Shown piece after piece: positions 1 through 9,462 of a DNA stretch of 32,000 nucleotides. The notes beneath the pieces are model-generated. The model searched no databases, had not been told where the DNA came from, and saw nothing but the letters and a program-made list of their open reading frames with translations. Origin of the DNA: Patescibacteria group bacterium (GTDB taxonomy: Bacteria > Patescibacteriota > UBA1384 > XYA2-FULL-43-10); the NCBI GenBank assembly GCA_041674405.1, contig JBAYVT010000001.1, forward strand, positions 120,001 to 152,000, in the 5' to 3' direction. Numbering within the stretch: the stretch's first letter is position 1; every line of letters starts with the position of its first letter. The position numbers and the translations under genes were made by a program.

Positions 1-176
1 AAACTGCCAGATTGCTTCGAAAACAACACAGAAACAACCCTTCTTTAAAAATAATTGCCATAAGCGGATACGGAACAAGCGAGGATAAAAAGAAATCAAA
101 AGAAGCAGGTTGTGACGCGCACATAACCAAACCGGTTAATGCTAACAAGCTCCGTGAAATTATTGAGGCTATATAA
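1..176 (+). CDS. Response-regulator receiver domain protein, C-terminal fragment (5' part lies upstream of the window)
   Basis: My translation from nt 3 gives TARLLRKQHRNNPSLKIIAISGYGTSEDKKKSKEAGCDAHITKPVNANKLREIIEAI*, with stop TAA at 174-176. A hydrophobic strand plus S-G, then the invariant Lys-Pro ('ITKPV') and a terminal helix, match the beta4-to-alpha5 part of CheY-like receiver domains. Confidence 0.7.
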   Translation, partial: TARLLRKQHRNNPSLKIIAISGYGTSEDKKKSKEAGCDAHITKPVNANKLREIIEAI

Positions 177-205
177 ATCTTTGAGATTATTTACTAAATA
201 GTGTT

Positions 206-241
206 CTCGGGCGCGCTCTCCGGCGCGCCCGAGTGGGTTTT
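206..241 (+). terminator. Candidate intrinsic terminator downstream of the response-regulator gene
   Basis: There is a perfect 11-bp GC-rich inverted repeat, CTCGGGCGCGC (206-216) / GCGCGCCCGAG (223-233), with a 6-nt loop, followed by TGGGTTTTCC. It starts 30 nt after the stop codon. The U-tract is only 4 T, so confidence is moderate. Confidence 0.45.
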
Positions 242-377
242 CCGGCTGCCGCTCCGGCGCCGGTTTCGGTTTGCTGGCTTATTAAGGCTTTTAAGCCGCA
301 CTTGCCTCTCGGAGAACCGCTTGCTGCTCTCCCAACCCCCAGGAACATCCCGAATGTCTGGAAATGATTGTGCTTGC

Positions 378-581
378 CTAGCTGATGACATTGCTCTCAG
401 CCTCCTCATAAGCGAAAGAGCAAAGCCCTCCATTTACGGCTACCATCCGCGCTCTCTTTATCCCAGACATCGTCAGCGCAACAAGAATGGTGCCAGCGCT
501 CTCTCGCTTGACAACCACCCTCTGCCCTTTCTTGTCCACGATCACTCCATCCTTAGCAATCAAAGTTCCATCACAAGCCAT
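378..581 (-). CDS. Hypothetical small protein (67 aa) inside the GC-rich island
   Basis: The ATG at 581-579 has GGGAGGA ending 6 nt upstream, the strongest SD-like match I saw in the window. The sense strand is purine-rich. The product is MACDGTLIAKDGVIVDKKGQRVVVKRESAGTILVALTMSGIKRARMVAVNGGLCSFAYEEAESNVIS*. I recognise no family. The ORF track starts it one codon earlier, at TTG 584. Confidence 0.35.
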   Translation of the reverse strand: MACDGTLIAKDGVIVDKKGQRVVVKRESAGTILVALTMSGIKRARMVAVNGGLCSFAYEEAESNVIS

Positions 582-640
582 CAATCTTCCTCCCTGTTTG
601 TTCTGGATGCCAGACCTTCAATCGCTCGAAAATCTGGCAC

Positions 641-667
641 AAAAACAAAAACCGGCCAATGGGCCGG
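641..667 (-). terminator. Intrinsic terminator (minus strand); weaker bidirectional potential
   Basis: Stem CCGGCC (652-657) / GGCCGG (662-667) has loop AATG. On the minus strand the hairpin is followed by TTTTTGTTTTT (complement of 641-651). On the plus strand it is followed by ATTTCTTC. Confidence 0.5.
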
Positions 668-777
668 ATTTCTTCAAAAAATATTTAGTTAAGCTTTTAC
701 ATTAAAAATCACGGCCCTGGTGGTCATGTGTAAAATAAAACCAAAAATTTCTTGTGATATTATTCATGCTACTTCAA

Positions 778-806
778 ATATTATCAACAAATTTAAAACA
801 AGTCAA
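778..806 (-). promoter_or_regulatory. Candidate sigma70-type promoter (minus strand)
   Basis: On the minus strand this reads TTGACT (806-801), a 17-nt spacer, then TAATAT (783-778). The -35 element abuts the TAA stop (809-807) of the upstream membrane-protein gene. In AT-rich DNA such matches can arise by chance. Confidence 0.3.
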
Positions 807-3511: not shown

Positions 3512-3570
3512 AAATTTTGGTCTAAAATCCTATTTTCTAAATCCTAAACAATTATAAATGTTCAAAATCC

Positions 3571-3603
3571 AAAATATCAAATAATTTCCGTTTTTGATAT
3601 TTT
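3571..3603. repeat. Perfect 11-bp AT-rich inverted repeat in the intergenic spacer
   Basis: AAAATATCAAA (3571-3581) and TTTGATATTTT (3593-3603) are separated by 11 nt. The same spacer carries AAATCC three times (3525-3530, 3539-3544, 3565-3570). Confidence 0.6.
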
Positions 3604-8406: not shown

Positions 8407-9462
8407 TTAAATTATTAACATTGCATCACCATAAGAATAAAAACGATATTTTGAATTGATAGCAAATTCATACGATTTCTTTATATTTTTTTCTCCAGCA
8501 AAAGCCGACACGAGCATAAGTAGGGTTGACTTTGGTAAATGAAAATTGGTCACCAATGCATCAATACTTTTAAATTTATAGCCTGGATAAATAAAAATGT
8601 CGGTCCAACCGGAAATTGCTTCGCTTTGGCCTTTTACTTCGTGCTTTTCGCTGTTAATTTCAATTTGGCCGAACGCTGTTTCAAGCACTCGAGCCGTAGT
8701 CGTGCCCACTGCAATAATCCTGCCACCATTATTTTTTGTCTGTAGAATTTTTGAGATCAGTTTTTTACTAATCTCAAAATATTCGCTATGCATTTTGTGG
8801 TCTTTAATGTCATCAACTTTCACCGGTGCAAAAGTCCCCAGCCCAACATGAAGCAAAACAAATTCAACATCGACACCCTGTCCTTTGATCTGTTCGAGAA
8901 GTTCTTTTGTAAAATGTAGCCCGGCGGTTGGAGCTGCCACACTGCCTTTGCGTTTGGCAAATATTGTTTGGTAGTTGTCTCTATCGGGGGCCTCGCTTTT
9001 ACCTTTTCGAATATATGGCGGAATTGGAATAAGGCCAATTTTTTCTATTTCAGAGATAAACCGGTCTCCGCCCAAATTAAACCTCACGATATACATGTCA
9101 TTCTTTTTTTCTTGTACAATTGCTTCCAATTTGGAGCTTTCAAAAACTACGCGTTTTCCAGATTTTAGCCTTTTACCTAGTATCTCCCATTCAAAATTAT
9201 TAATTTGCTTATGTAGAAAAATTTCCACACTTCCGTGAGTCAAATAATTTTTACCGAGAAGCCTAGCCGGAATTACTTTAGTATTGTTCAAGACCAACAA
9301 ATCACCAGGTTTGAAAAATTTTGTAATATTTTTGAAAATATCAGATTGTATCTCGCCAGATTCCTTGTCCAGAACTAAAAGACGCGAGTGGTCCCGCGGC
9401 TCTGCCGGAGATTGTGCAATCAACTCCGAAGGCAACTCATAATCAAAGTCTGATAATTTCAT
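8407..9462 (-). CDS. queA: S-adenosylmethionine:tRNA ribosyltransferase-isomerase
   Basis: It shows MKLSDFDYELPSELIAQSPAEPRDHSRLLVL...VAAPTAGLHFT...GTTTARVLE...FHLPKSTLLMLVSAF, which is full-length QueA-like (351 aa). Confidence 0.93.
   Translation of the reverse strand: MKLSDFDYELPSELIAQSPAEPRDHSRLLVLDKESGEIQSDIFKNITKFFKPGDLLVLNNTKVIPARLLGKNYLTHGSVEIFLHKQINNFEWEILGKRLKSGKRVVFESSKLEAIVQEKKNDMYIVRFNLGGDRFISEIEKIGLIPIPPYIRKGKSEAPDRDNYQTIFAKRKGSVAAPTAGLHFTKELLEQIKGQGVDVEFVLLHVGLGTFAPVKVDDIKDHKMHSEYFEISKKLISKILQTKNNGGRIIAVGTTTARVLETAFGQIEINSEKHEVKGQSEAISGWTDIFIYPGYKFKSIDALVTNFHLPKSTLLMLVSAFAGEKNIKKSYEFAINSKYRFYSYGDAMLII

Follow-up and report, generated by a model that had tools for sequence, protein, structure and literature searches.

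What is the short GC-rich island at positions 194-640 of the window, which is the whole stretch of 32,000 nt analyzed here from a Patescibacteria group bacterium? The initial annotation had described it as an unassigned island in an AT-rich genome and considered two options, structured RNA and recently acquired DNA. By direct count, the GC content is 54.4% for the island and 59.5% for positions 201-400, against 38.8% for the window and 42.1% for the genome. The per-line counts given before (36, 36, 28, 33, and 34 G+C per 60-nt line across 241-540) were reproduced exactly, as were those of the comparison lines (21/60 at 8461-8520 and 12/60 at 3541-3600). The term "AT-rich genome" is appropriate for the local backbone and the genes flanking the island (36-39% GC), but not for the whole genome, which shows a heavy GC-rich tail. 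Between the two options, foreign or accessory DNA fits better than structured RNA. We favor, with moderate confidence, the interpretation that the island is a lineage-specific single-gene GC-rich islet in a variable slot, composed of a probable ORFan gene and an untranslated GC-rich tail. The features of the island and its surroundings are as follows.

206-233, no strand assigned: GC hairpin of 11-12 bp, 30 nt past the stop codon of the 969-aa hybrid histidine kinase gene on the plus strand.
234-377, minus strand: GC-rich (~60%) tail, 3' of ORF67, with no coding or structure signal.
378-581, minus strand: ORF67, an open reading frame of 67 codons in the ORF list, with ATG at 581-579 and TAG at 380-378.
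586-594, minus strand: Shine-Dalgarno (SD) sequence GGGAGGAAG, with the core GGAGG at 593-589, 7 nt before the ATG.
605-640, minus strand: hairpin with a stem of 12-15 bp, between the upstream terminator and the SD, present in both the minimum-energy and centroid folds (inverted repeat I7).
641-667, minus strand: intrinsic terminator CCGGCC-CAUU-GGCCGG followed by a U-tract, 3' of the membrane-protein gene, found by the terminator scan.
702-806, minus strand: leader preceding the terminator, consisting of the promoter-like TTGACT-17-TAATAT (806-778) and an aromatic-rich mini-ORF of 21 codons (767-702).

The genome is 0.93 Mb in seven contigs, 98.7% complete, and of the Patescibacteria type. 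The 400-nt windows that are at least as GC-rich as the island constitute the top 4-5% of the genome. With the definition of at least 54% GC over 300 nt, 124 GC-rich islands were counted. They are mostly gene-sized and occupy ~90 kb, or ~9.6% of the genome length. The island was initially regarded as exceptional, a premise that finds no support; similar islets make up about a tenth of the genome, and the ones that were tested are protein genes. The longest overlapping ORF is contained to at least 80% within the island in 58 of the 124 cases. Twenty of the larger ORFs from such islands were sampled for Pfam domains. Domains were found in nine and none in the other 11. The genes with domains include a 1298-aa PurL, a PurM-like protein, a PurC-PurE fusion, an aminotransferase, a methyltransferase, an M48 peptidase, and proteins with HD and CSD domains. 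Another such GC-rich gene, UbiA, lies immediately upstream of the window. Many islet ORFs bear G-rich SD sequences resembling that of ORF67. These results indicate that GC spikes in this genome usually correspond to protein genes of foreign-looking composition, often orphans, rather than to structured RNAs.

The purine-synthesis genes among the islets (the 1298-aa PurL, the PurC-PurE fusion, and the PurM-like gene) show 56-60% GC in a backbone of ~40%. Examples of islets are C1:90132-94031, C3:109215-110591, and C3:4109-5227.

The coding capacity of the island was evaluated with a six-phase codon model trained on nine Pfam-verified GC-rich genes of this genome (~4,100 codons). In the leave-one-out evaluation with 68-codon windows, the in-frame phase wins in 98.6% of the windows from real genes vs. 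1.4% of the windows from spurious ORFs. For ORF67, the in-frame model beats the five other phases, and both halves of the frame are positive. Its six-phase profile is correlated with that of real genes at 0.97. Among random open frames with the dinucleotide composition of the island itself, 1.1% score as high as ORF67 (p = 0.011). At 0.034-0.059 per codon, the in-frame score is low for a real gene, around the 5th percentile. GC1, GC2, and GC3 of ORF67 are 0.54, 0.43, and 0.57. An open frame of 67 codons arises by chance in 7% of sequences of the same composition.

The strong SD reported in the initial annotation for this minus-strand ORF is present, with GGAGG, a 7-nt spacer, and ATG. The 16S rRNA of this genome has the canonical CCUCC anti-SD at its 3' end. 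Genome-wide, there are 135 GGAGG-N5-9-ATG sites, and 45% of them open ORFs of at least 60 codons, far above the chance expectation. In this genome, most of the ORFs of at least 60 codons behind such sites are real genes. ORF67 has both characteristics expected of a protein-coding gene: a start codon with an SD at the proper spacing, and a gene-like codon phase.

No other frame in the island behaves in this way. The initial annotation had noticed that several frames are open on both strands and ascribed this to composition, with the 67-aa frame as the only protein-like reading. The codon-phase model agrees on both points; only ORF67 looks coding, and the remaining open frames score as non-coding. 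The 163-aa plus-strand ORF was rejected as a gene, having a codon score of -0.12, no SD, and a GTG start inside a hairpin. The 79-aa minus-strand frame (433 to 194) was also rejected, with no coding signal. A longer gene that extends beyond the TAG by read-through or frameshift was considered and rejected, as the extension scores -0.217 per codon and shows no coding signal. No frame in 234-377 has a positive codon-phase score. Searches against Pfam, PHROGs, and NCBIfam returned no match for the 67-aa ORF, the 79-aa minus-strand ORF, or the 163-aa plus-strand ORF.

The predicted product of ORF67 is 7.0 kDa with a pI of 8.7. It is predicted to be all-beta, with no signal peptide and no membrane segment. 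The AF2 model contains five strands with a pLDDT of 52.6, and the ESM Atlas model, also of low confidence (0.44), is a small all-beta structure like that of AF2. These predictions suggest that the product is probably a mildly basic, all-beta cytoplasmic protein of 67 residues. Exactly the same protein is recorded from two contigs, the longer of which is 395,669 bases, although only one distinct sequence is known. Its occurrence on two contigs argues against an assembly artefact.

ORF67 has no relative in any collection searched. No homolog was found in 5.8 billion protein clusters. The exhaustive HMMER search of 1.84 billion representatives returned only one match (P0002), which is a low-complexity repeat protein with no local alignment to ORF67, and was rejected as a homolog. 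Six-frame searches of 400 genomes of the phylum, searches of viral contigs, and PADLOC found nothing for ORF67. At the DNA level, no match of the island to the 44 genomes of the order exceeds 35 nt, and phage and plasmid collections gave no blastn match. The genus is represented by one genome, and scans with the neighboring membrane-protein gene gave relatives at 25-28% identity only. In line with what had been stated from the sequence, no catalogued family of RNAs or proteins matches the island.

Two similarities to known folds were considered. A faint likeness to ThiS/MoaD-type beta-grasp proteins had been proposed for the middle of the protein. It finds no support in Pfam or NCBIfam (no match at E<=1) or in PDB, and the C-terminus of ORF67 is ...SNVIS, not Gly-Gly. 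The phmmer search against PDB hit the designed Pizza6 propellers with an E-value of 5e-4 for the whole chain, in which residues 13-53 of ORF67 align to one blade. This score is the sum of weak matches to near-identical blades; the best three are 6.8 bits each, and the individual E-values are 130 or more. The Pfam NHL model PF01436 detects nothing in the island at E<=1, while it recognizes 20 blades in other parts of the genome. Nor is ORF67 similar to the NHL proteins of its own genome. On these three grounds, the identity of ORF67 as an NHL-repeat beta-propeller was rejected.

The possibility of a structured RNA was examined with Rfam models and folding. The window contains no Rfam match at the gathering score. 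When the threshold is relaxed to E<=10, 194-640 yields nothing meaningful, only a 10-bit RRE match and a match to a human lncRNA. The initial failure to recognize RNase P, tmRNA, SRP, 5S, or riboswitches in the island is in agreement with the Rfam check. RNase P RNA is located at C1:230619-230938 and tmRNA at C1:250435 on the same contig, and a divergent copy of either was rejected as the identity of the island. Neither the small and large models of SRP RNA nor the 6S RNA model matched anywhere in the 98.7%-complete genome. The undetected SRP RNA is presumably too divergent or unassembled. The missing SRP and 6S matches are a gap in the models and no pointer to the island; they neither support nor exclude an RNA there. 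The size and shape of the island do not fit 6S or SRP RNA.

The fold of the whole island is more stable than those of shuffled sequences, with z-scores of -5.2 for the minus strand and -3.6 for the plus strand. These values are due to the two end hairpins at 206-233 and 605-640, as z-scores in the interior are only -0.6 to -1.6. With dinucleotide shuffles, 234-380 shows -1.28 for the minus strand and -0.57 for the plus strand, and 378-600 shows -1.58 and -0.61. The structured-RNA reading is not supported: there is no meaningful Rfam match, and no folding in excess of chance once the end hairpins are removed. All hairpin sequences listed in the initial annotation are present, but besides 206-233 they are at the chance level for GC-rich sequence. 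The strong stem at 605-640 was absent from that list. The word GCGCTCTC occurs three times, at 213, 449, and 496, as had been noted. An 8-mer occurring three times is seen in 2.4% of Markov-1 simulations. The two copies of GCGCTCTC within ORF67 sit in different codon phases.

The hairpin at 206-233 has 12 pairs, 10 of which are GC, and is followed by TGGGTTTTCC on the plus strand in the terminator scan. Its inverted repeat is 100% complementary. On the minus strand, there is no clean U-run after the hairpin. It is terminator-like, reads as the terminator of the convergent kinase gene, and would probably serve the ORF67 transcript too. The 145-nt stretch between this hairpin and ORF67 had been left unexplained; an untranslated tail of the insert is its most plausible reading. 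At the other end of the island, the base of the 605-640 hairpin is extendable, with the terminator U-tract pairing with the A-rich stretch that precedes the SD.

The genome contains a single copy of the island, and no second copy of 234-377 exists. There are no direct repeats flanking the island. There is an imperfect 16-nt inverted repeat, with 81% identity, at 190-205 and 677-692, which brackets the island and both terminators. A MITE or another repeated mobile element is unlikely, as the unit is single-copy. The 21 nt at the terminator of the membrane-protein gene (642-662) are 81% identical to a sequence just 3' of tRNA-Asp, 6.3 kb away (L016:4356-4376; AAAACAAAAA..GGCC.A.TGG). This likeness could be either the chance similarity of two terminators or a trace of ancestral adjacency.

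The island is located in a slot whose content differs between relatives. A comparison of the orthologous locus had been suggested in the initial annotation, and we compared the genome under study (G000) with two relatives of the family, G005 and G003. The PPIase gene and the membrane-protein gene are conserved; the membrane protein, 320 aa in G000, is 38% identical in G005 and 41% identical in G003. In these relatives, tRNA-Asp follows on the same strand, after ~0.5 kb in G005 and after ~1 kb in G003. The slot in G005 (L011:1012-1447) contains a GIY-YIG gene and a 12-nt copy of the 5' end of the tRNA. The slot in G003 (L012:2470-3576) contains an unrelated GC-rich (54-58%) 228-aa orphan gene with a 247-aa antisense open frame. 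In G000, the slot is filled with 6.3 kb of lineage-specific DNA (window 1-806 plus L016:4390-10176), including two orphans, an EEP-family nuclease, the GC-rich UbiA gene, the 969-aa hybrid kinase, and the island. Blastn and tblastx revealed no homology of the island to the GC-rich insert of G003 or to the slot of G005. The 969-aa hybrid histidine kinase (window 3-176 and L016:7267-10176) lacks a full-length ortholog in the seven other genomes of the family, where matches are confined to its HisKA-HATPase core, at ~30% identity. The gene is AT-rich like the backbone, yet lineage-specific. The different cargo in G005, G003, and G000 indicates that the island lies at the conserved edge of a slot that has been refilled in each lineage.

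In this respect the locus resembles tRNA-linked variable slots, since three genomes of the family carry different cargo between the membrane-protein gene and tRNA-Asp. It differs from tRNA-linked islets in three points: the island has no flanking tRNA fragment, the slot of G000 contains no integrase, and tRNA-Asp is 5.7 kb away, with the island on its 5' side. No fragment of tRNA-Asp was found near the island. An 18-nt copy of the 3' end of the tRNA is present downstream of tRNA-Asp in G000. As expected of a horizontally acquired islet, the island deviates in composition and is missing from the corresponding position in relatives; neither a donor nor scars of mobility were found, and phage, plasmid, and viral collections yielded no donor.

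The abundance of islets in this genome agrees with a study in which up to 13% of the genome length in Patescibacteria was attributed to horizontal gene transfer (PMC12455944, mSystems 2025). The island is similar to the transferred genes and islands in that study, being a gene-sized deviating segment in an ultra-small CPR genome, and the ~9.6% share of such islands is within the reported range. Genes of unknown function are also common among the reported segments. Unlike in those cases, no donor, integrase, repeat scar, or relative could be found for this islet. Its transfer is inferred only from the composition and the variability of the slot among relatives.

Another comparison is with phage "morons" or single-gene cassettes. 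They are extra genes with their own promoter and terminator inserted between conserved genes. ORF67 is similar to them as a small gene of foreign composition between conserved or unrelated neighbors, with a strong ribosome-binding site and a GC-rich hairpin at the 3' side. It is different from them in that it has no promoter of its own and lies behind the terminator of a neighbor, with no prophage context and no match to phage or viral sequences.

How ORF67 could be expressed is therefore a matter of the region upstream. The promoter scan found no sigma-70-like promoter between 652 and 585. The promoter-like site nearest to ORF67 is that at 806-778, directly after the stop codon of the membrane-protein gene. 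As ORF67 lies behind the terminator at 667-652, its transcription from there would need read-through. We suppose that ORF67 would be transcribed on the minus strand from the site at 806-778 by such read-through, that translation would start from GGAGG-N7-ATG, and that the transcript would end at or near the hairpin at 233-206, which could serve the convergent kinase gene too. The tail at 234-377 would be an untranslated sequence that arrived with the insert.

In all three genomes, a promoter-like -35/-10 pair is observed within ~50 nt past the stop codon of the membrane-protein gene: TTGACT-17-TAATAT (window 778-806), TTGATT-17-TATTGT (G005, L011:1455-1485), and TTGACA-17-TATGTT (G003, L012:2490-2518). 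These pairs may represent the ancestral promoter of tRNA-Asp. Downstream of the pair, the sequences of G005 and G003 align (p = 0.002), and the leader segment of G000 aligns marginally with the promoter-like region of G005 (p ~0.04).

The order of elements upstream of ORF67 (promoter, short aromatic-rich ORF, intrinsic terminator, SD, and gene) is like that of leader-peptide attenuators (Phe_leader RF01859; the pheA, trp, and his type). Folding with a masked ribosome also switches between antiterminator and terminator as in those systems. With the ribosome masked at the aromatic codons, an antiterminator is formed, in which GGGCCG at 717-712 pairs with CGGCCC at 666-661; with the ribosome masked at the stop codon, the terminator is favored. 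The resemblance is limited in several points. The Rfam match to Phe_leader is weak, 35.4 bits vs. the cut-off of 55, with many non-canonical pairs in the model. The mini-ORF at 767-702 has no SD and would be nearly leaderless. Shuffled sequences lose the terminator from the minimum-energy fold likewise in 77 of 1000 cases, and the antiterminator is no better than this 7.7%. The downstream gene is an ORFan, unlike the biosynthetic enzymes of known attenuators. The segment 702-806 and the terminator may form an attenuator-like leader of ORF67, at a low probability, and read-through is taken as the default. A functional leader-peptide attenuator, with ORF67 as its cargo, that would sense the supply of aromatic aminoacyl-tRNAs by means of the promoter at 806-778, the F-W-F-Y-F mini-ORF, and the terminator at 667-652 is improbable.

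Three other explanations of the island have to be weighed against the favored one. It is possible, though on the unlikely side, that the island is inert acquired or junction DNA at the edge of the 6.3-kb lineage-specific insertion, and that ORF67 and its SD-like motif are chance products of a GC-rich composition. This would account for the several frames open on both strands, including the 163-aa plus-strand frame, for the absence of homologs, for the low confidence of the structure models, for the lack of an own promoter and the position behind a terminator, and for the location at a synteny break. The 0.07 probability of an open frame of 67 codons is compatible with it. On the other hand, just 1.1% of random open frames exceed the codon-phase score of ORF67, and the in-frame phase is the best in both halves. 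GGAGG is at the ideal spacing, and most ORFs of 60 codons or more that follow such a site in this genome are real genes. Streamlined small genomes would also seldom retain 450 nt of useless DNA. It is improbable that the island represents a novel structured or regulatory RNA, which could be the whole 234-640 transcript, an sRNA derived from the 3' UTR at 234-377, or an antisense RNA on the plus strand, with ORF67 being incidental or dual-function. Structured RNAs typically stand out by their high GC content in an AT-rich backbone, the z-scores of the whole island are low on both strands, and the highest GC content (~60%) is in the non-coding 234-377. Rfam models locate SRP RNA and 6S RNA nowhere in the genome, and the triple occurrence of GCGCTCTC has a p of ~0.02. 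These points are countered by the lack of a meaningful Rfam match at E<=10 inside 194-640 and by the origin of the z-scores in the two end hairpins. The island also offers no homolog for covariation, with no DNA match over 35 nt in 44 genomes of the order, and the other GC-rich islets tested in the genome are protein genes.

Very improbable is a decayed remnant of a longer foreign gene, such as an NHL-type beta-propeller gene, of which ORF67 would be the 5' piece and 234-377 the scrambled remainder. The phmmer match of residues 13-53 to one blade of the Pizza6 propellers (E-value of 5e-4 for the whole chain) and the 79-aa frame continuing from 433 to 194 are in line with it. However, the Pizza6 score is composed of weak blade matches, each with an E-value of 130 or worse. 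The Pfam NHL model is silent in the island at E<=1, yet finds the true NHL proteins of this genome, to which ORF67 is dissimilar, and neither the frame read through the TAG nor the 79-aa frame has a coding signal. The single-gene islet remains the explanation we favor. Several points count against it as well. ORF67 has no homolog that could show purifying selection. The codon score is low, the structure models are of low confidence, ORF67 has no promoter of its own and a terminator upstream, an ORF of this length has a 7% chance, and no donor was found.

The locus itself matters little. It would be one more ORFan gene, which is ordinary for a genome in which about a tenth is GC-rich gene-sized islets. 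If the leader were a real attenuator, it would be a rare case of amino-acid-sensing control in CPR; a CPR bacterium unable to make amino acids would induce a lineage-specific small protein at the shortage of Phe, Trp, or Tyr. More generally, the locus is a clean example of a GC spike that, in this genome, signals an accessory protein gene rather than a structured RNA. The locus also marks the slot that separates the conserved membrane-protein gene from tRNA-Asp and that each lineage has refilled with cargo of its own. The rule on GC spikes and the refilled slot both bear on how ultra-small symbionts gain genes.
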